Positions 33,055 through 41,644 of a DNA stretch of 64,000 nucleotides are shown here, piece after piece. The notes under the pieces are model-generated. The model worked only from the letters and a program-made list of their open reading frames with translations, made no database searches and was not told the DNA's origin. This DNA is from Acidobacteriota bacterium (lineage in GTDB: Bacteria; Acidobacteriota; Thermoanaerobaculia; Gp7-AA8), in NCBI GenBank assembly GCA_019244185.1, contig JAFATB010000019.1, forward strand, positions 282,574-346,573. The letters run 5' to 3'. How positions within the stretch are numbered: position 1 is the stretch's first letter; each line of letters opens with the position of its first letter. A program made the position numbers and the translations under genes.

Positions 33055-34643
33055 CGGCCGCCAAACAGCGCGTGCTCGTCACTGACACGCTCGCGGAGTC
33101 GGGGCTCGAGATCCTCCGCGCCGCGGATGACATCGAGCTCGATTACCGCGCCGGACTCAAAGGCGACGAGCTGCTCGAGGCGGTCCGGCAATCCGATGCG
33201 CTCATCACGCGCAGCGGCACCGCGGTGACCGAGGAGCTCGTGAACGCGGGGACGCGACTGCGCATCGTCGGACGCGCCGGTGTCGGTCTCGACAACGTCG
33301 ACGTCGACGCCTGCACGCGCCGCGGCGTCCTCGTGATCAACGCGCCGACGGCGAACATCATGTCCGCCACGGAGCACACGATGGCCATGCTGCTGTCGTT
33401 GTGCCGCAACATCCCCGAGGCGCATGCGAGCGTGAAACGCGGCGAGTGGACACGCTCGAAGTTCATGGGCATCGAGCTCGATGGCAAGACCCTCGGCGTC
33501 ATCGGACTGGGGCGCATCGGCTCGCGCGTCACGACACGTGCGCGCGCGTTCGGCATGCGCGTCATCGCGTACGACCCGTACATCAACGACTCCGCATTTC
33601 AGAACGCCGGCGCCGCGAAAGTCACACTCGATCAGCTGCTCGCGCAGGCGGACGTCATCACCGTGCACACGCCGATGACCGACGAGACGCGCGCGCTCAT
33701 CGGCGCGGACGAGATCGCGAAGATGAAGGACGGCGTGGTCGTCCTCAACATCGCGCGCGGCGGCATCTACGACGAGCGCGCGCTGGCCGACGCGCTCAAC
33801 TCCGGCAAGATCGCCGGCACGGCGATCGACGTGTACGAGGACGAGCCGCCGGGCAAAGAGCATCCGCTGCTCAACGCGAAGAACGCGATCCTGTCGCCGC
33901 ACATCGGCGCGAACACGATCGAGGCGCAGGACCGCGTCGCCGTGCAAACGTCCGAGATGGTGCTCGAGGCGCTGCGCGGCTCGATCTTCGTCTCCGCGGT
34001 AAACCTGCCGTTCGAAGGCACCGCCGACGCCGACGCGGCGCCGCTCATCCGCCTCGCGGAGAAGCTCGGCCTCTTCGCCGCGCAGGTGCTCAACGGGCCG
34101 CTGCATCGCGCCGAAGTCGAGCTGTGGGGCGTCGAAGAGCGGCTGACGAAAATCCTCTCCGTCGCCTCCCTGAAGGGATTGCTCGCGCCGTTCCTCGCCG
34201 AGTCCGTGAACTTCGTCAACGCCGAACAGATCGCGCACGCGCGCGGCGTCGCCATCAGCTCGACGATCCATCCGTCGCCGCGCGACTACAGCAATCTCAT
34301 CACGCTGCGCGCGTCGTCCGCGACCGAGGAGATGTGCGTGTCCGGAACGGTCTTCCACGAGAAGAACCAGCGCATCGTGTCGATCAACAACTTCCGCGTG
34401 GAGTTCAAGCCGGAAGGGCACCTCATCTACATCATCAACCGCGACGTGCCCGGCGTCGTCGGCAAGGTCGGTACGCTCCTCGGCGACCGCGAGATCAACA
34501 TCGCCGAGTACAACCTCGCGCGCACCGGCAGCGGCGGCCGGGCCATGGCCATCATCACCGTCGACTCGCCCCTCGATCCCGAAACGCTCGGCTTTCTCCG
34601 CTCGTACCGCGAGATGATCGAGGTCAAGCAGGTAAAGTTGTAG
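33051..34643 (+). CDS. serA: D-3-phosphoglycerate dehydrogenase (long type with ACT domain)
   Basis: RAGVGLDNVD, GLGRIG, ARGG, PHIGA, C-terminal ACT (DVPGVVGKVG). Confidence 0.95.
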   Translation: MTAAKQRVLVTDTLAESGLEILRAADDIELDYRAGLKGDELLEAVRQSDALITRSGTAVTEELVNAGTRLRIVGRAGVGLDNVDVDACTRRGVLVINAPTANIMSATEHTMAMLLSLCRNIPEAHASVKRGEWTRSKFMGIELDGKTLGVIGLGRIGSRVTTRARAFGMRVIAYDPYINDSAFQNAGAAKVTLDQLLAQADVITVHTPMTDETRALIGADEIAKMKDGVVVLNIARGGIYDERALADALNSGKIAGTAIDVYEDEPPGKEHPLLNAKNAILSPHIGANTIEAQDRVAVQTSEMVLEALRGSIFVSAVNLPFEGTADADAAPLIRLAEKLGLFAAQVLNGPLHRAEVELWGVEERLTKILSVASLKGLLAPFLAESVNFVNAEQIAHARGVAISSTIHPSPRDYSNLITLRASSATEEMCVSGTVFHEKNQRIVSINNFRVEFKPEGHLIYIINRDVPGVVGKVGTLLGDREINIAEYNLARTGSGGRAMAIITVDSPLDPETLGFLRSYREMIEVKQVKL

Positions 34644-34646
34644 CGC

Positions 34647-35633
34647 ATGCATTACCGCAAGCTCGGCAACACCGACATCACGGTCAGCGAGATCGGCTTC
34701 GGCGGCTGGGCCATCGGCGGCGCATCCGACGCCGGCGGCACGCCGATCGGCTGGGGACGCACGAGCGACGAGGAGTCGCTCGCCGCGATCCGCCGCGCGC
34801 GCGAGCTCGGCGTCACGTTCTTCGACACCGCCGACTCCTACGGCTTCGGCCGCAGCGAGTCGCTGCTCGGCATCGTGCTCTCGCGCCGGCGCAAGGAAGT
34901 GGTCATCGCGACGAAAGCCGGCGTCGCGCGCAGCTCCGACGGCCGCGTGCGCAAGGACTTCTCGCGCGAGCACATCTCGCACGCCGTCGACGGCTCGCTC
35001 AAACGCCTGCGGACCGACTACATCGATCTCTATCAACTGCACAATCCGACGCTCGACGAGCTGCGCCGCGACGACATCCACGAGGCGATGGACCGCCTGC
35101 AGGAAGCGGGAAAGATCCGCTACTGGGGCGTCTCCATCACGACGCCGGACGAAGGACTGGAGATCGTCCGACGCGGCTGGGGCTACGCGCTGCAGGTGCT
35201 CTACAACGTTCTCAATCAGGCGCCGGCGCAGGAGCTCTTTCCGCTGGCGAAGGAGAAAGGCTACGGCATCATCGCGCGCGTGCCGCTCGCGTCGGGCCTC
35301 CTCAGCGGCAAGTTCCGCCCCGACAGCACGTTTGCGAAAGACGACATCCGCCAGAACTTCCTCACGCCGAAACGCCTCGAGGAAGTGCTGCCGCGCGTCG
35401 ACGAAGCGAAGTCGCTCATCGGCGGCACCGCGCGTTCGCTGGCGGAAGGAGCGTTGCGCTTCATCCTCGCGAACGACGCCGTGTCGACGACGATCCCCGG
35501 CGCGCGCAACGTCCGCCAGGTCGAAATGAACGCGTCCGCCGATGAAGTGCGCATCCCGCAGGAGATCGTCGACAAGCTCCGCGCGCGCCTCGGCGACTAC
35601 AACTTCTATCAGCGGCACGGGATCAAGATTTAA
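34647..35633 (+). CDS. Aldo/keto reductase
   Basis: IGFGGW, FDTADSYG, IATK, DYIDLYQLH, GKIRYWGVS, PLASGLL. Confidence 0.93.
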   Translation: MHYRKLGNTDITVSEIGFGGWAIGGASDAGGTPIGWGRTSDEESLAAIRRARELGVTFFDTADSYGFGRSESLLGIVLSRRRKEVVIATKAGVARSSDGRVRKDFSREHISHAVDGSLKRLRTDYIDLYQLHNPTLDELRRDDIHEAMDRLQEAGKIRYWGVSITTPDEGLEIVRRGWGYALQVLYNVLNQAPAQELFPLAKEKGYGIIARVPLASGLLSGKFRPDSTFAKDDIRQNFLTPKRLEEVLPRVDEAKSLIGGTARSLAEGALRFILANDAVSTTIPGARNVRQVEMNASADEVRIPQEIVDKLRARLGDYNFYQRHGIKI

Positions 35634-35641
35634 GGAAGCCC

Positions 35642-35698
35642 TGCTACAATCGATCGACTCCCCAACGAGCGCACGTCGTCGTTTCTTCGCGGGGAGTC
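35642..35698 (+). promoter_or_regulatory. Extended -10 promoter plus structured 5' UTR pairing with the SD
   Basis: TGCTACAAT 35642-35650; GACTCCCC 35656-35663 complementary to GGGGAGTC 35691-35698. Confidence 0.6.
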
Positions 35699-36001
35699 AT
35701 GTCTGAACGCATCTATCACCGGATTCAGGGCCGTGAGCTCAACGAGCTCATGCAGCGCACTGGCAAGGTCGGCGGGCGACGCATGCGGAACATCGGCTCT
35801 GGCATCTTGCCGCGGGTAAAGGCCTACGACGGCCCATTGCCGCCGGAGTGCACGGGAATCGAGTTCACGACGGAGGTCGAGCCGTATTCCGGGTCGATTC
35901 CCGGGAAGCCGACATGGCGGCAGGGGGACGCAGGGGTTGAGGTCGCTGAGCTGAATGAACTGGTCCTGATCCCCGTTACCATCATCAGGAGGCAGGATTG
36001 A
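35699..36001 (+). CDS. Hypothetical 100-aa protein, toxin-domain-like
   Basis: Strong SD GGGGAG; IYHR, VKAYxGPLP, GIEFTT pattern recalled from polymorphic-toxin tips (unverified). Confidence 0.6.
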   Translation: MSERIYHRIQGRELNELMQRTGKVGGRRMRNIGSGILPRVKAYDGPLPPECTGIEFTTEVEPYSGSIPGKPTWRQGDAGVEVAELNELVLIPVTIIRRQD

Positions 36002-36003
36002 CG

Positions 36004-36471
36004 ATGCGTAATGCATCCCCCGACGCGCTTCGTTCCGACATTCGTCCGGCTCTGGTTGCCCATCTCGGTGCCGCCGAATTCGAGAACGTCTTTCGCGTCG
36101 ACTTTCAGGATCTCGACCCGTTCGACGCCGCGGAGCCATCACGTGCGGCTTTGGTGCGCCTCGACAGCGGAAAGCTCATCGTCGTCGAATATGGCCTCAG
36201 CACCTCGACGTTGACGGTATCGGTGCCGGAAGACGCCGACGTGAACGAGACGGTGTGCGACCTCCTGCAGGAAACAGGAATCGACACGGACACCATCGAC
36301 TGGCTGGTTGACGAGATCCTGCCCGAAGGTCCGTTCCTGTACGACAACAACAGTCCGTCGACGACGATGATGGAACTGCGGCGTCGTACCGGACAACGGC
36401 GCGGAGCGAGGGAGTCCGATCAGCGCTCTGCCTCGCAACAGATGCCGCTGACCACCAGCCGAAAACCGTAA
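36004..36471 (+). CDS. Acidic hypothetical protein, immunity/antitoxin-like by context
   Basis: SD AGGAGG, starts 2 nt after upstream stop (or TTG at 35998); Asp/Glu-rich alpha/beta core. Confidence 0.6.
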   Translation: MRNASPDALRSDIRPALVAHLGAAEFENVFRVDFQDLDPFDAAEPSRAALVRLDSGKLIVVEYGLSTSTLTVSVPEDADVNETVCDLLQETGIDTDTIDWLVDEILPEGPFLYDNNSPSTTMMELRRRTGQRRGARESDQRSASQQMPLTTSRKP

Positions 36472-36480
36472 CGAGAACGC

Positions 36481-37428
36481 ATGACCAGCGGGAGGGCGAG
36501 CGTCGGGCGCTCCATTCGGGAACGACGCACCCACTGCGCCCTCTCGCTTGGCGTTCTCGCCGATCGCGCCGGCATCTCCCCGCAGGAACTCTCCGCCATC
36601 GAGCATGACGCGCAGCGGCCGTCGGACGCGGCGCTGACGCGCATCGCGACCGAGCTGTCTCTCGACGTCGCGCGGATTCACACGATGCACGCCATGGCGG
36701 ACCGCGCGCGGGTGTTGCGAGGTGCACCGCCCGAGGATGCGGCGGCCGTGATCGATGACGTGTTGCGCACGCATCCCCGCGCGTTCGTCGCACGCGATCG
36801 ACAGGACATCGAGAAGCTCGCCGCGAAGGTTCGCCCGAACCTGCCTCTGACGAATGATCGCCTCTTCGCCTCCTCCCTGTTCGAACACTTGACGCAGCTC
36901 GCGGTAAGGGTCGGCAACGACGAATACGCGGTGGACACGGCGGTCCAGCCTCTCGCGAGAAGAGTCGAAGCGTGTACGCGCGTGGACGTTCGCCGGCGCG
37001 TCTTCCAGATCAACCTGAGTCCCGAGGCGTACCAGCAGATGCATCGGCGCGGCAGTCCGCGAATGCTGTTCACCATTTGCCACGAGCTCGGACATTTGTT
37101 CCTTCATCGGAGCGAGCTGATCGCGGCGGGAGGGCGCGGTGAGATACCGGAAGGTTCGCCGCCGCGGCATCTCGACGTGGAACGGCAGGCCGACGCATTT
37201 GCAGGCGCACTGATCGCGCCGATTGAAAGCGTGTTGGCGTTGCACGACCAGATGGGTCACATCTCCGCGGTCGATCTGTCGCGCGGTTTCGGCTACTCCG
37301 CGCGTGCGGCTGAAGTCCGCATCGAAACGATTCAGAGCCTGCGGCCGGGACGCCTGACGCTCTTCGATCCTCAGTGGCGCCTCTTCCCAAAACTTTCCGC
37401 CGCCGAGGACGTTCTAAAGCGTCGATGA
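36481..37428 (+). CDS. XRE-family HTH fused to ImmA/IrrE (M78) zinc metallopeptidase
   Basis: HTH SLGVLADRAGISPQELSAIE; RMLFTICHELGH (HExxH) and VERQADAFAGALIAP. Confidence 0.85.
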   Translation: MTSGRASVGRSIRERRTHCALSLGVLADRAGISPQELSAIEHDAQRPSDAALTRIATELSLDVARIHTMHAMADRARVLRGAPPEDAAAVIDDVLRTHPRAFVARDRQDIEKLAAKVRPNLPLTNDRLFASSLFEHLTQLAVRVGNDEYAVDTAVQPLARRVEACTRVDVRRRVFQINLSPEAYQQMHRRGSPRMLFTICHELGHLFLHRSELIAAGGRGEIPEGSPPRHLDVERQADAFAGALIAPIESVLALHDQMGHISAVDLSRGFGYSARAAEVRIETIQSLRPGRLTLFDPQWRLFPKLSAAEDVLKRR

Positions 37429-38864
37429 AAGCCCGCGCCGCCGCCGCGTTGCTTGCCGCCATCTCGTTCGTGCTTCCGCTGCACGCGCTCGATACCGAGG
37501 CGTGGCTGGCCGACTTTCACCAGGTGCTGGCGGAGATGTCGTCGCATTACGCGAACCTCGACTCCGCCATCGACGACCGCGGGATGGATCTGCGGGCGCT
37601 GCGCAAGCGCTACGAGCAGCGCATCCGCGACGCGAAGTCGGATGCGGAAGCGCGCGCGGCCATCGACGAGTTTCTCGCGGCGTTCGGCGACGGACACGTG
37701 CGCGTCGACTGGAACGTCGCCGCGCCTGCTCCATCTTCGACCACGCCGGCACGCGACACGCGTCCGCTGTGCGAACGCCTCGGCTACGCCAGCGGCGCCG
37801 ACACGCGTGCGCTCGATTTCTCGCGCATCGCGGAGTACCAGCCGCTCGTCGATGCCGACGCCGCGATCTTTCCCGGCGGCATCCTGCGGCTCGACGGCAA
37901 GCGCAAGGCCGGCATCCTGCGCATCCGCCTCTTCATGGAGACGACGCAGCCGCAGCTCTGCGAGGCGGCGACGAAGTCGCTCGCGCTCGCGAACGATGCG
38001 GAATGCGACGGCAATTGCGCGTGGAGCGTGCAGCTCGCCGCCGGCGATCTCATGACGGCCGCGCTGGAGCGCCGCGTCGAAGCGTTGCGCCGCGCGGGCG
38101 CCACGACGCTGACGGTCGATCTCACCGGCAACGGCGGCGGCTCGAACTGGGTCCAGCCGGCGGCGCGCGTGCTCACGCCGGTGGCGCTGCGCGGCGCGCG
38201 GCTCGCCTTCATCCGCCACGAACACTGGGTGAAAACGCTCGGCTCGTTCCTCGACGACGTCGACTACGACCTCGCGCACGACGCCGCGCCGCGTGCGCAG
38301 CTCCTCGCCGCGAAGACGACGCTGACGCGCGCGCGGGAAGAAGCGCGCGGCACGTGCGATCGCAGCGGCATCTGGAGCGATCCGATGCAGCGTCCCGACT
38401 GCTCGCTCCTCGTGCGCGGTCTCCTCTTCGCGACCGGCGTGCTGCCGTACGCGAAGACCGGCGCGTTCCCGCGCGAGCTGCACGCGCACGGCTCGCTCTT
38501 CGATCCGTCGAACTACGCGTACACCGAAGGCGCGAACCAGTTGCCGCTGGTGATCCTCGTCGACGACAACACCGCGTCCGCCTCGGAAGAGCTCGTCGCG
38601 ATGATGCAGGACAACCACGCCGCGACGATCGTGGGCAGCGCGACGCACGGCTCCGGCTGCGGCTACACCGACGGCGGCATTCAGGCAACGCTCGCGAAAT
38701 CGGGCGCGTCGCTCTTCCTGCCCGACTGCGTCCGCCTGCGCGCCGACGGCACGAACGAAGTCGTCGGCATCACGCCCGACGTCCTCGTGCCGTTCCGCCG
38801 CGCCGACAGCCGCCATCAGAAAGCGCTCAAGGTGCGGCAGGCGCTCCTGCAGATCGCGAAGTGA
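37425..38864 (+). CDS. Secreted S41 family peptidase
   Basis: Signal peptide; FGDGH, DLTGNGGG, TASASE catalytic Ser, GITPDV; ATGA overlap with IrrE-like gene. Confidence 0.82.
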   Translation: MKARAAAALLAAISFVLPLHALDTEAWLADFHQVLAEMSSHYANLDSAIDDRGMDLRALRKRYEQRIRDAKSDAEARAAIDEFLAAFGDGHVRVDWNVAAPAPSSTTPARDTRPLCERLGYASGADTRALDFSRIAEYQPLVDADAAIFPGGILRLDGKRKAGILRIRLFMETTQPQLCEAATKSLALANDAECDGNCAWSVQLAAGDLMTAALERRVEALRRAGATTLTVDLTGNGGGSNWVQPAARVLTPVALRGARLAFIRHEHWVKTLGSFLDDVDYDLAHDAAPRAQLLAAKTTLTRAREEARGTCDRSGIWSDPMQRPDCSLLVRGLLFATGVLPYAKTGAFPRELHAHGSLFDPSNYAYTEGANQLPLVILVDDNTASASEELVAMMQDNHAATIVGSATHGSGCGYTDGGIQATLAKSGASLFLPDCVRLRADGTNEVVGITPDVLVPFRRADSRHQKALKVRQALLQIAK

Positions 38865-38902
38865 TCGGGATGAGAGTGCGCGGCTGACGCGTTCTCATCT
38901 CG

Positions 38903-41644
38903 ATGCCCAATCGCACGATCTCCATCCGCGGCGCGCGGACGCACAACCTGAAGAATGTCTCGGTGGACATCCCGCAGCGGCAGCTGACGGTGATCACCGG
39001 ACCGTCCGGCTCGGGCAAGTCGTCGCTGGCGTTCAACACGCTCTACGCCGAAGGGCAGCGCCGCTTCGTCGAGTCGATGTCGACGTACGTGCGGCAGTTC
39101 CTCGAGCGCATCGACCGCCCCGACGTCGACGAGATCGACGGCATCCTCCCCGGCATCGCCATCGAACAGAAGAACTCGGTGAAGAACGCGCGTTCCACCG
39201 TCGCGACCGCCACCGAGCTCGCGGACCACATCCGCCTCTTCATGACGTACTGCGGCGAGACGTGGTGCCCCGACTGCCACGTGGTGGTACGCAAGGAAAA
39301 CCCGGAGTCGATCACCAACGCGATCCTGGCGCGGCTCAGCGGCAAGCGCGCGGTCGTGCTCGCGCCGGTCTTCTTCGAGGCCGAGCATCGCGCGATCGTC
39401 ATCGACCAGCTCGTGAAGGCGGGCTTCTTTCGCGTCTGGATCGACGGCGAAGTGCGCGACCTCAACGACCTCGACACGAAAGGCTTCACCTCGCTCGAGC
39501 TGGTGATCAACCGGCTGCGGCTCGACGCGGAGCGGCGCACGCAGATCACCGAGGCGATCGAGCAGGCGTTCGAACTATCGAAGGGGAATGTGAACGTGCT
39601 GCAGGAGTCCGACGAGGGCTGGCTCTCGCATCGCTTCACGTCGCACTTTGCGTGCAATCAATGCGGCACCGAGTTCCTCGAGCCGACGCCGCATCTCTTC
39701 TCGTTCAACTCGCCGCTCGGCGCGTGCACGCATTGCCAGGGCTACGGCCGCATCATCGGCATCGATCTCGACAAGGTCATCCCCAACCGCGCGCTGCGTC
39801 TCGACGAGCTGCCGATCGCGCCGTGGAACTCGCCCGGTTACGAGGACTGCTACGAAGACCTCGAGAAAGCGGCAAAGAAATACGGCCTGCGCCTCGACGT
39901 GCCGATCGCCGACCTCACGCCCGCGGAGTGGACGCTGCTCCACGACGGCCGCGGAAAGTGGTACGGCATCAAAGGCTTCTTCGAGTGGCTTGAGACGAAA
40001 AAGTACAAGATCCACGTGCGCGTGAAGCTGGCGAAGTACCGCAGCTACGAGCGCTGCCCCGAATGCCGCGGCTCGCGGCTCAAGAGCGTCGTGGACAACG
40101 TCAAGTTCCGCGACCTCACCATCGGCGAGCTCTTCGCGATGAACGTGCGCACCGCGCGCCGCTTCTGGGAGTTCCTGGCGATGTCGAAGGAAGAAGAAGC
40201 GATCGCCGGACATCTCCGCCGCGAGATCGTGAACCGCCTCGTCTACCTCGATGAAGTCGGCCTCTCGTATCTCACGCTCGACCGCCAGACGCGCACACTC
40301 TCCGGCGGCGAGTCGCAGCGCATCAACCTCGCCGCGGCCCTCGGCAGCTCGCTCACCGAGACGATGTACGTCATCGACGAGCCGACGGTCGGACTGCACG
40401 CGCGCGACAGCGAGCGATTGCTGAGCGTTCTGCGGCGTCTGAAGAACGCCGGCAACACGGTCGTCGTCGTCGAGCACGATCCGACGATCATCGAAGGCGC
40501 CGACTACAACGTCGAGCTCGGACCGGGAGCGGGGGAGTTCGGCGGAACAGTGCTCTACGCCGGCGCTTCACGCGGACTCGACGCGGCGCACGAGCCGATC
40601 GCCGCGAACGACGTCGAGAACGCCGGCGCGATCCGCATCGTCAACGCGCGCGAGCACAACCTGCGCGGCGTCTCGGCGGAGATCCCGCTCGGCAAGCTCG
40701 TCGCCGTCACCGGCGTCTCCGGCTCGGGCAAGTCGACGCTGATCCGCAACTGTCTCTACAACCGCTATCAAAGAGACATCCGCGGCGTGGCCGGACTCGA
40801 GACCGGCAAAGTGGATGCGCTCGAAGGCACGGACCTCGTCTACGACATGGAGTTCGTCGACCAGTCGCCGATCGGCCGCTCGTCGCGCTCGAATCCCGCG
40901 ACCTACATCAAGGCGTGGGACGAGATCCGCAAGCTGCTCGCCGAGACGACCGCCGCAAAACTGAACGGCGTCACCGCCGGCATGTTCTCGTTCAACACGA
41001 CGGGCGGCCGCTGCGAAACGTGTCAGGGCGCAGGCACGGTCACGATCGACATGCAGTTCCTCGCCGACGTCGAAGTCGTCTGCGACAAATGCGACGGCCG
41101 CCGCTTCGGCGACCAGGTCATGAAGGTCACGTTCAAAGGGAAGAACGTGAACGACATCCTGCAGATGACCGTCGACGAGGCGTCGAAGTTCTTCGTCGCG
41201 AAGCGCGCGCTGCTCAAGCGGCTCGACGCGCTCCGCTCGGTCGGCCTCGGCTACCTGCGGCTCGGACAATCCACCGACTCGCTCTCCGGCGGCGAGGCGC
41301 AGCGCCTCAAGCTCGCGTCGTTCCTCGCTGAGAGCGCCGCGAAATCCGACAAGCCGCGCCTCTTCCTCTTCGACGAGCCGACCACCGGCCTGCACCACAC
41401 CGACGTGCAGGTGCTCATCAAGACGTTCCGCGATCTCATCGACCGCGGCAACAGCGTGCTGGTGATCGAACACAACACGCAGCTCATCGAGCAGTCCGAC
41501 TGGATCATCGACTTGGGACCCGAAGGCGGCGACGGCGGCGGCGAGATCGTCGCGGTCGGAACGCCCGACGACATCGCCGCGAATCCGCGCTCGATCACCG
41601 GAAAGTACCTGCGAGTGCAGCGCCGCACGGCCGCCGCGGTTTAG
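38903..41644 (+). CDS. uvrA: Excinuclease ABC subunit A (UvrA family)
   Basis: GARTHNLK, GPSGSGKS, FSFNSP zinc fingers, LSGGE twice, GVSGSGKS, DLGPEGG. Confidence 0.93.
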   Translation: MPNRTISIRGARTHNLKNVSVDIPQRQLTVITGPSGSGKSSLAFNTLYAEGQRRFVESMSTYVRQFLERIDRPDVDEIDGILPGIAIEQKNSVKNARSTVATATELADHIRLFMTYCGETWCPDCHVVVRKENPESITNAILARLSGKRAVVLAPVFFEAEHRAIVIDQLVKAGFFRVWIDGEVRDLNDLDTKGFTSLELVINRLRLDAERRTQITEAIEQAFELSKGNVNVLQESDEGWLSHRFTSHFACNQCGTEFLEPTPHLFSFNSPLGACTHCQGYGRIIGIDLDKVIPNRALRLDELPIAPWNSPGYEDCYEDLEKAAKKYGLRLDVPIADLTPAEWTLLHDGRGKWYGIKGFFEWLETKKYKIHVRVKLAKYRSYERCPECRGSRLKSVVDNVKFRDLTIGELFAMNVRTARRFWEFLAMSKEEEAIAGHLRREIVNRLVYLDEVGLSYLTLDRQTRTLSGGESQRINLAAALGSSLTETMYVIDEPTVGLHARDSERLLSVLRRLKNAGNTVVVVEHDPTIIEGADYNVELGPGAGEFGGTVLYAGASRGLDAAHEPIAANDVENAGAIRIVNAREHNLRGVSAEIPLGKLVAVTGVSGSGKSTLIRNCLYNRYQRDIRGVAGLETGKVDALEGTDLVYDMEFVDQSPIGRSSRSNPATYIKAWDEIRKLLAETTAAKLNGVTAGMFSFNTTGGRCETCQGAGTVTIDMQFLADVEVVCDKCDGRRFGDQVMKVTFKGKNVNDILQMTVDEASKFFVAKRALLKRLDALRSVGLGYLRLGQSTDSLSGGEAQRLKLASFLAESAAKSDKPRLFLFDEPTTGLHHTDVQVLIKTFRDLIDRGNSVLVIEHNTQLIEQSDWIIDLGPEGGDGGGEIVAVGTPDDIAANPRSITGKYLRVQRRTAAAV

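Follow-up and report, generated by a model that had tools for sequence, protein, structure and literature searches.

In a 64,000-nucleotide stretch of an Acidobacteriota genome (Thermoanaerobaculia; Gp7-AA8; GenBank assembly GCA_019244185.1, contig JAFATB010000019.1, positions 282,574 to 346,573 of the forward strand; hereafter the window), we analysed an islet of three small genes, designated ORF1, ORF2 and ORF3 (ORF, open reading frame), that lies between an aldo/keto reductase (AKR) gene and a gene for an S41 peptidase. Our preferred reading, held with moderate confidence, is that the islet carries a toxin-immunity cassette derived from polymorphic toxins, which would function intracellularly in the manner of a type II toxin-antitoxin (TA) system and to which ORF3 would have been added as a lineage-specific switch. 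The strongest part of this reading is that ORF1 and ORF2 very probably constitute a toxin-immunity pair. An earlier description made from the letters alone (the original prediction) had reported three tightly packed, co-oriented ORFs of 100, 155 and 315 aa between the AKR and S41 peptidase genes, and the coordinates and the Pfam families of the flanks agree with this arrangement. The three genes are as follows.

35699-36001, plus strand: ORF1, 100 aa, predicted free-standing minimal ADP-ribosyltransferase (ART)-fold toxin domain with the candidate triad R8, T21 and E55.
36004-36471, plus strand: ORF2, 155 aa, predicted cognate immunity protein or antitoxin with an acidic folded domain (residues 1-108, 36004-36327, pI 4.05) and a basic disordered tail (pI 11.5).
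36481-37428, plus strand: ORF3, 315 aa, XRE-type helix-turn-helix (HTH; residues 9-63, 36505-36669) fused to an M78 ImmA/IrrE-type metallopeptidase (residues 192-281, 37054-37323).

The genome that holds the window is referred to as G000; other genomes, loci and ORF1-related proteins carry G, L and P numbers, respectively.

ORF1 matched no family of Pfam (at E≤1), NCBIfam, PADLOC or PHROG. An exhaustive phmmer search recovered 241 related proteins at E≤1e-3, and the best 152 of these hits were used for domain layouts and conservation counts. Stand-alone proteins of at most 135 aa accounted for 86 of the 152, while 61 carried the domain at the C terminus of proteins of 137 to 1319 aa and 5 had other layouts. 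A Pfam scan of 20 longer ORF1-type proteins (thresholds E≤0.01 and E≤0.001) revealed RHS_repeat in three, weak RHS-core matches in two, PT-TG in two and PT-HINT in one; of the remainder, one contained TIR, alpha-CTD and GUN4, one contained pentapeptide repeats and ten had no family. RHS_repeat was found in P0030, P0117, P0057 and the metagenomic L072, PT-TG in P0095 and P0052, and PT-HINT in P0041. The ORF1-type domain of P0117 begins straight after ...PDPLGL-x16-DPLGL, the canonical end of the RHS core, and in L072 the domain forms the terminus of the RHS-repeat protein. A different context was seen in P0093 (689 aa), where the domain is located between a CAP12/Pycsar-type TIR plus an RNA polymerase alpha C-terminal domain (CTD) and GUN4, which is a conflict-type multidomain architecture and no RHS toxin. 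ORF1 itself has no N-terminal trafficking or delivery region, as the family profile spans residues 4-100 of its 100 residues. Judged by sequence, ORF1 is a member of a toxin-domain family, yet by itself it is no polymorphic toxin. The earlier suggestion that ORF1 resembles the tip of a polymorphic toxin with an ART-like domain, and has no delivery domain, is therefore borne out by the C-terminal layouts, the RHS, PT-TG and PT-HINT carriers and the structure search described below. Word-index searches returned merely two relatives for ORF1, two for ORF2 and five for ORF3; single-protein scans of genome contigs gave no match for ORF1 or ORF3, and viral contigs searched with alignment A5 gave nothing.

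A structural model of ORF1 was predicted with AlphaFold (AF2) from an alignment of 53 short members (A1) and reached a predicted local distance difference test score (pLDDT) of 94.8. In a wide structure search with VIA-align, the top match was TreTu (7zhl_A; Z 5.8, root mean square deviation 3.8, 84 residues aligned), followed by CNFy domain 4, tRNA 2'-phosphotransferases, CARDS, Tne2, RhsP2, Scabin and TreX; diphtheria and pertussis toxins, PARPs, MbcT, DarT and ParT were among the further matches. Judged by titles, ART-fold proteins made up at least 45 of the 50 rows. Because this list is consistent and no single score is decisive, confidence in the fold derives from the list as a whole; on the basis of the model, ORF1 has an ART-fold domain. 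Within the family, R8 was conserved in 122 of 126 proteins, S or T at position 21 in 131 of 143, and E55 in 145 of 152, with Q in the remaining seven. F56 was present in all 152, W73 in 145 of 147, H7 in 105 of 126 and Y, F or W at position 43 in 142 of 152. In the model, R8 lies within strand E6-9 and E55 within strand E53-57, and T21 is positioned just ahead of strand E23-27. The conserved residues are compatible with an R-[ST]-E reading (R8, T21 and E55) as well as with an H-Y-E reading of the ART triad (R-[ST]-E or H-Y-[EDQ], on strands 1, 2 and 5). NAD+-dependent ART chemistry is likely for ORF1.

Several observations weigh against the fold and active-site assignment. Foldseek, one of the checks proposed with the original prediction, returned nothing from the PDB at E≤0.001 for the ORF1 or the ORF2 model; the ART-fold matches came from VIA-align. 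The best Z value of ORF1 (5.8) is modest and under the caution line of 8 of the tool. Comparison of the A1 profile with PDB sequences gave no solved ART and one chance antibody hit (E 0.026). The triad was assigned from conservation and secondary-structure position, not by residue-level superposition. A search of the ESM Atlas gave nothing decisive: the clusters nearest to ORF1 had no names and scored under 0.9, and an Arr-ms cluster at rank 24 (0.87) is no more than a lead.

The evidence for ORF2 as the partner of ORF1 came from gene linkage, relations between partner families and a predicted complex. The ORF caller reported ORF2 as a frame of 157 aa at 35998-36471 on the plus strand with a TTG start. 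The true start is likely the ATG at 36004, which gives 155 aa, because AGGAGG is present at 35988-35993 and 15 of 15 homologues have M at this position (MR in 13). The stop codon of ORF1 (35999-36001) and this ATG are separated by 2 nt, and the AGGAGG sits within the 3' end of ORF1. Each of the 13 further full-length homologues of ORF1 that were retrieved, 12 from seven congeners and one from a different genus of the same family, is followed directly 3' by an ORF2 homologue, and the tight spacing was likewise seen in these 13 pairs. Three of the 13 loci stem from the unpublished genome G002, the exclusion of which leaves 10 of 10; G002 also supplied six of the flank annotations given below and rows in alignments A3, A4 and A5. 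A metagenomic search with the ORF1 alignment yielded 59 loci, 48 of which had a downstream ORF. Eight of these ORFs were close ORF2 types and 33 were acidic types with a 'DDLD' motif, so that 41 of the 48 encode a partner of the ORF2 superfamily. The relation between the two types was evident from a profile comparison (hhalign; probability 97.5%, E 8.6e-12, 93 columns). The RHS-repeat toxin L072 also has a DDLD-type partner next downstream.

The complex predicted for ORF1 and ORF2 reached an ipSAE of 0.81, compared to 0.00 for the best of three controls, and the benchmark mark for this score was attained by 58 of 80 solved complexes and by 2 of 110 mismatched pairs. Contacts agreed by at least 97% between runs, and the partner pLDDT was at least 86. 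The predicted contacts with the lowest error connect R8 and I9 of ORF1 with A43-E44-P45 of ORF2, the most conserved ORF2 loop. No solved homologue was found by sequence, so that the score is unlikely to reflect a known complex memorised by the predictor; as a prediction, the modelled complex supports binding of ORF2 to ORF1. In its own model, ORF2 consists of a confident alpha+beta domain (residues 1-105, pLDDT ~95) followed by a disordered tail; basic tails are present in several partners of the superfamily, ORF2 among them. ORF2 matched no Pfam immunity family, and PADLOC gave just a weak AbiEi match (E 0.025). Less favourable to an immunity role is that the fold matches of ORF2 were generic alpha+beta (best Z 8.2, half of a CYTH tunnel; also TATA-binding protein-like and RnlA NRD). 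No immunity family, TriTu included, was among the fold matches listed, which excludes nothing, and the ESM Atlas gave no usable feature hit for ORF2. In silico, the assignment of ORF2 as a cognate immunity protein has thus been strengthened by the adjacency at every other locus, the partner of an RHS toxin, the complex score and the acidity of the N-terminal domain.

ORF2-type domains also occurred in fusions. In G006 (L008/L029, contig C76), the domain is fused to an extracytoplasmic function (ECF) sigma factor (Sigma70_r2 and Sigma70_r4_2; L029:2075-3088, minus strand) and encoded directly 3' of an ORF1 homologue, which suggests that toxin-partner contact can be wired to transcription. Another ORF2-like partner is fused to AAA_14 and DUF4143 (L102:2772-4238, plus strand), and at L099:2131-2964 (plus strand) a gene for a HEPN (pEK499_p136) protein comes next after the partner.

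ORF1 was present in 9 of 41 genomes, namely, in G000, in 8 of 24 congeners and in none of 16 genomes from beyond the genus, with one to three copies per genome. When the family profile was applied across the phylum, 3 of 401 genomes had a match, all of which belong to the window's own family. At nine other pair loci (in G002, G003, G006, G007, G010 and G019), 18 flanking ORFs were scanned with Pfam. These ORFs differed by locus; four had no Pfam family, and the named genes encode an exosortase, an ABC-2 permease, an enoyl-CoA hydratase, a DAHP synthase, Lgt, a lipid A acyltransferase and an M1 peptidase. No RHS, secretion or mobility gene was found among the 18. The type II TA features seen in the pair comprise small adjacent co-directional genes, coupled spacing and a patchy, locus-independent, multi-copy distribution. 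As judged from these sequences, the pair resembles a mobile TA cassette in being patchy, multi-copy and inserted between housekeeping genes. Two loci had an ORF2-type gene in the absence of a complete toxin gene: at L013 (G088:C55) there was no ORF1 homologue upstream, and at L012 (G118:C31) the gene is situated beside a 40-residue remnant of a toxin C terminus. G000 holds one copy of the ORF1 family. Contigs C2, C6, C7, C11 and C26 of G000 contain several very large RHS-repeat ORFs, with open frames of 1679-2348 aa and, in a single case, of 7325 aa, none of them near the window; since ORF1 has a single match in G000, none of these ORFs carries an ORF1-type tip.

The islet also differs from its surroundings in composition. 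GC content and GC at third codon positions (GC3) were 0.620 and 0.78 for ORF1, 0.611 and 0.72 for ORF2, and 0.656 and 0.77 for ORF3, compared to 0.669 and 0.90 for the AKR gene, 0.703 and 0.90 for the S41 gene and 0.654 and 0.91 for uvrA. Across the AKR, S41, uvrA and serA genes, GC3 ranged from 0.90 to 0.92, and all three islet ORFs were below this range (0.72-0.78), in agreement with the earlier remark that the islet is more AT-rich than its flanks. An assembly artefact was excluded as the source of the arrangement because a contig from a soil run of a second study (X4, 7503 nt) was collinear over 34002-39600, with ~96% identity, 208 differences and 4 gaps. Within ORF1, the three listed differences to the X4 strain were all synonymous and at third codon positions.

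The flanking genes are as follows.

34647-35633: AKR gene, upstream flank, Aldo_ket_red protein (Pfam E 4.7e-60).
37425-38864, plus strand: S41 peptidase gene, downstream flank (Peptidase_S41, E 2.6e-15), with the signal-peptide-like N terminus MKARAAAALLAAISF...

The AKR gene was core (34 of 35 genomes). In the 18 congeners with AKR and uvrA on one stretch, the gap between the two genes ranged from 21 nt (G022) and 40 nt (G015) up to ~5.8 kb, and neither ORF1, ORF2, ORF3 nor the S41 gene was present in any of these 18 gaps. The empty AKR-uvrA sites of relatives therefore identify 35634-38902 as an insertion. In G007, the gap is 5.7 kb long and starts with the pair. The contents of the gaps (L033-L051 and L016), which were judged from translations and, for G007 alone, by a Pfam scan, varied and included amidohydrolase-like, methyltransferase-like, response-regulator-like and small XRE-like ORFs. 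The AKR-uvrA gap is a hypervariable insertion hot spot. At L040 (G011:C28), repeated GCTCTACAG/CTGTAGAGC units form a long imperfect palindrome that occupies the 257-nt gap. A further contig, X5, joins position 35533 to 38903 (side 68, likeness 85; the letters between are not known), which gives a hint of an islet-free relative. No meaningful flanking repeats, no tRNA and no integrase were found around the islet. The presence of ORF1 in 8 of 24 congeners and of ORF3 in 1 of 34 also shows that the islet genes are not core genes kept by all relatives, the case named with the original prediction as speaking against it.

The ATG of the S41 gene overlaps the ORF3 stop codon (ATGA). The S41 gene was considered as a fourth member of the islet and rejected: just 2 of the 35 genomes from the genus carry it, its GC3 (0.90) is host-like and it is absent from L052, a metagenomic contig of a more distant relative described below. 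For these reasons, we treated it as a later arrival inside the same insertion that stands outside the conserved trio.

ORF3 contains HTH_31 and HTH_3 over residues 9-63 and Peptidase_M78 over residues 192-281 (E 1.8e-10). The HELGH motif is located at residues 201-205 (37081-37095), with a Glu further downstream within ERQADAFAGALIAP; thus, the XRE HTH, the HELGH and the downstream Glu that had been read from the translation are all present. In PADLOC, ORF3 matched RmrA (1.2e-12; the RmrA models have no curated cut-off), capP (1.4e-12) and capH (1.7e-4). This check, which had been proposed for the whole islet, answered for ORF3 (RmrA, capP) and recognised neither ORF1 nor ORF2 as a defence family. 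A match to the NCBIfam spr1629 repressor/antitoxin family was far under the cut-off of that family, and the best PHROG was phrog_2439, a phage transcriptional regulator (E 1.4e-18). Besides G000, 1 of 34 congeners had a match to ORF3, which makes 2 of 35 genomes for the genus.

The association of ORF3 with the pair was seen a second time in L052, which has the order AKR, ORF1', ORF2', ORF3', uvrA and no S41 gene. Identities to the window were 72% for AKR, 64% for ORF1, 55% for ORF2, 38% for ORF3 (312 aa) and 83% for UvrA, and ORF3' retains HTH_31 and Peptidase_M78. In G000, 9 nt separate ORF3 from the gene before it, and the corresponding gap in L052 measures 24 nt. As the trio is kept at an ORF3 identity of 38%, ORF3 has remained intact and in place through a long divergence. 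A number of results speak against a functional role of ORF3 in the cassette. None of the 13 other genomic loci had an ORF3-like gene within ~3 kb of the pair, and among the 24 metagenomic loci (of 59) with at least 700 nt past the partner, L052 was the sole case; the M78 profile used for the metagenomic loci was home-made from six sequences and could miss distant members. In G007, the pair is present at the same AKR site and is followed by unrelated genes, e.g., DinB_2 and amidohydrolase. The closest congener relative of ORF3, in G017 (L010, G017:C393, 1116-2103), is a split pair in which a 119-aa XRE HTH is followed by a 207-aa M78 peptidase. Moreover, since G000 and L052 share the same site, a single origin follows, and the association could be mere co-inheritance. 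The split arrangement in G017 looks like a mobile-element regulator pair, and the frames 5' of it translate like a tRNA gene, as seen from translation, without a tRNA scan. Of the predicted three-gene system, the link between ORF1 and ORF2 has thus stood, whereas its third member was near none of the 13 other genomic pairs. ORF3 is probably a lineage-specific addition to the pair and probably co-transcribed with it; whether the two are functionally coupled is a close call that, in our estimate, falls slightly short of probable.

The upstream region contains two elements that might act on expression of the islet.

35642-35650, plus strand: TGCTACAAT, extended -10-like box in the 65-nt gap 3' of the AKR gene, candidate islet promoter.
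35656-35698, plus strand: 8-bp inverted repeat GACTCCCC ... GGGGAGTC, the 3' arm of which overlaps the Shine-Dalgarno-like GGGGAG right before the ORF1 ATG.

The sequence CCTGCTACAAT upstream of ORF1 recurs unchanged in the diverged L052, and G007, where the pair occurs alone, lacks it. A sigma-70 consensus scan of 35300-37800 gave no site, which counts against a promoter of the islet's own; of this earlier claim, the conserved -10-like box TGCTACAAT remains, and a consensus promoter does not. One terminator-like site was found, on the minus strand, compared to 1.6 expected by chance. The hairpin of GACTCCCC and GGGGAGTC appeared in the minimum-energy and centroid folds; the whole 96-nt stretch was no more stable than its shuffles (z -0.12). 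L052 has a counterpart of the inverted repeat (CTCCCC...GGGGGG). The folds hint weakly that the inverted repeat would sequester the ribosome-binding site of ORF1.

Among known systems, one of the closest parallels is TreTu-TriTu, which consists of the C-terminal ART of Salmonella Rhs1 and its immunity protein (PDB 7zhl/7zhm), with TriTu forming a beta-sheet lid over the NAD+ site, as given in excerpts of the source (PMC9825190). The closest structural neighbours of TreTu named there are CNF-gamma and an archaeal RNA 2'-phosphotransferase (PMC9825190). Like ORF1, TreTu is a minimal ART-fold toxin (~100-113 residues) with the immunity gene directly downstream, and the contact predicted between ORF2 and R8 of ORF1 would be an active-site plug of the same principle as that excerpted for TriTu. 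Unlike TreTu, which is located at an Rhs C terminus, ORF1 is free-standing and has no Rhs or type VI secretion system context. The two proteins have no detectable sequence similarity, and the conserved R8, S/T21 and E55 of ORF1 stand against the set R6/S25/E12/H31/W68 in the excerpted description of TreTu. A second candidate was Tox-ART-HYD1 (PF15633), which occurs with Imm-My6CBD, is RHS/HINT-linked and has ~97 positions with the pattern H,[RK],[FY],[DE], according to the parts of the survey used here (Zhang et al. 2012, PMC3482391). H7, R8, Y43 and E55 of ORF1 resemble the pattern as excerpted. The PF15633 model matched neither ORF1, the 53 short members, the 20 long members nor the G000 genome (E≤10); it found nothing in 401 genomes of the phylum, and the control genomes gave none either. 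ORF1 was not filed as Tox-ART-HYD1, as the Pfam model matched no scanned member in what was a model search, not a profile-profile comparison.

ORF3 recalls RosmerTA, in which the toxin RmrT is combined with the HTH/Zn-peptidase antitoxin RmrA, as the available part of the source describes it (Millman et al., 10.1101/2022.05.11.491447). RmrA-type HTH-ImmA proteins are hub antitoxins paired with many unrelated toxins, and the toxin gene comes first in 58% of cases, as stated in an excerpt of a further source (PMC10440598). ORF3 shares the domain plan of RmrA in addition to its PADLOC match. The islet differs from RosmerTA in having three genes, the toxin of which already has a dedicated partner, and the pair normally occurs without an RmrA-like gene; no RmrT model of PADLOC matched ORF1 or ORF2. 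The toxins of DarT-DarG, ParT-ParS and MbcT-MbcA were among the fold matches of ORF1 and are likewise cytoplasmic ART-fold proteins, each with a neutraliser encoded next to it. Of these neutralisers, DarG is a macrodomain hydrolase. DarT, ParT and MbcT matched ORF1 with Z values of just 2.7-3.5; they are larger toxins with no sequence similarity to ORF1 and with unrelated antitoxins. Three-gene TA operons with a separate regulator are known from omega-epsilon-zeta and from paaR2-paaA2-parE2, which combine a toxin, a neutraliser and a third, DNA-binding protein. The islet follows the same logic; however, its regulator has a metallopeptidase, its order is toxin-immunity-regulator and there is no homology. 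In ImmR/ImmA, DdrO/IrrE and CapH/CapP, an M78 peptidase cleaves a separate HTH repressor and thereby controls a mobile element, the DNA-damage response or CBASS. Unlike these, ORF3 combines HTH and peptidase in one polypeptide and has the AKR gene, the S41 gene and uvrA as neighbours; its likeness to capP and capH is at the domain level only.

In the mechanism that we propose, ORF1 would use NAD+ to modify an essential cytoplasmic target, which, by analogy with its nearest structural neighbours, would most likely belong to translation or RNA. ORF2 would be made by translational coupling right behind ORF1 and would bind it 1:1, with the acidic loop A43-E44-P45 blocking the NAD+ cleft; its basic disordered tail may bind nucleic acid or serve as a degradation handle. 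ORF3 would probably be co-transcribed from the conserved TGCTACAAT promoter, its HTH would most likely repress the operon from the TGCTACAAT region, and its peptidase domain would answer a trigger, as in RmrA-, ImmA- and IrrE-type switches. The pair would persist as an addictive or defensive cassette, and a part in phage defence is conceivable. A more specific version of the original prediction, in which the trio is a protease-gated abortive-infection or stress module, appears unlikely; here, an RmrA-like ORF3 would keep toxin and immunity gene silent and, on a phage or damage cue, lift the brake by self-cleavage or by cutting the ORF2 tail.

The weakest link of the proposed mechanism is ORF3, and the pair could instead be an autonomous TA-like cassette beside an unrelated neighbour, either a stand-alone HTH-M78 regulator or a solitary RmrA-like antitoxin of another mobile element, that has been co-inherited by adjacency. 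We regard this as a serious possibility, if a less than even one. It would account for the 13 genomic pair loci and 23 of the 24 long metagenomic ones at which no ORF3-like gene was found, and it fits a hot spot of varied contents where the G007 pair is followed by other genes and where the S41 gene was inserted directly behind ORF3 in G000 and not in L052. The split XRE and M78 relative in G017, with frames upstream that are tRNA-like in translation, and the phage regulator as best PHROG point the same way. On the other hand, trio order and tight spacing have been kept in two lineages whose ORF3 proteins are 38% identical, and no promoter was called in the 9- or 24-nt gap before ORF3. The promoter-like box 5' of ORF1 was seen only where ORF3 is present, and ORF1, ORF2 and ORF3 have a low GC3 in common, unlike the S41 gene.

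Two other explanations question the intracellular TA role itself. The pair might serve in warfare, with ORF2 guarding against RHS toxins of neighbours that carry this tip and ORF1 being a silent stand-alone cassette kept available to recombine with an rhs gene. Both families, toxin and partner, do occur in true RHS toxins, five contigs of G000 have large RHS-repeat ORFs, orphan partner genes exist (L012 and L013), and stand-alone toxin cassettes that recombine into polymorphic toxins have been described in the part of the survey at hand (Zhang et al. 2012, PMC3482391). We nevertheless consider this improbable: ORF1 starts with an ATG of its own behind a Shine-Dalgarno-like site, it is the sole family copy found in G000 and lies on a contig different from all RHS hits, the flanks at the Pfam-scanned 9 of 13 other loci are housekeeping genes without an RHS core, stand-alone proteins make up 86 of the best 152 family members, and the differences listed for ORF1 in the other strain are synonymous. 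Alternatively, ORF1 might be a regulatory, non-lethal ART, or a non-catalytic NAD+ binder, with ORF2 as its inhibitor in a signalling pair. Such a role would suit the fusions of the ORF2 domain to an ECF sigma factor (G006) and to AAA_14-DUF4143 (L102), the basic tails of several partners and the ART-like domain of CNF-gamma, for which ART activity is given as unconfirmed in the excerpted source (PMC9825190). It appears very improbable, as RHS, PT-HINT and PT-TG proteins deliver lethal payloads and have this domain as their terminal toxin module, as R8, S/T21 and E55 are strongly conserved, and as the distribution is patchy and multi-copy, with toxin remnants beside intact partners.

The cassette that we favour would mean that one toxin-immunity family leads two lives, as the warhead of RHS-type weapons and as a free-standing, mobile, intracellular cassette, and it would provide a concrete case for the turning of warfare modules into addiction or defence modules. 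Two protein families without Pfam, NCBIfam, PADLOC or PHROGs models were delineated, a minimal ART-fold toxin (predicted) with at least 241 relatives and its partner, and regulatory uses of the partner are hinted at by its fusions with an ECF sigma factor and an AAA ATPase. With its HTH-M78 gene, the locus offers a tractable system in which to ask if a peptidase switch of this kind is able to control a toxin for which a dedicated inhibitor is already in place. If the protease-gated trio were true, the islet would represent a switch of the RosmerTA type that has been joined to a complete toxin-immunity pair from inter-bacterial conflict.

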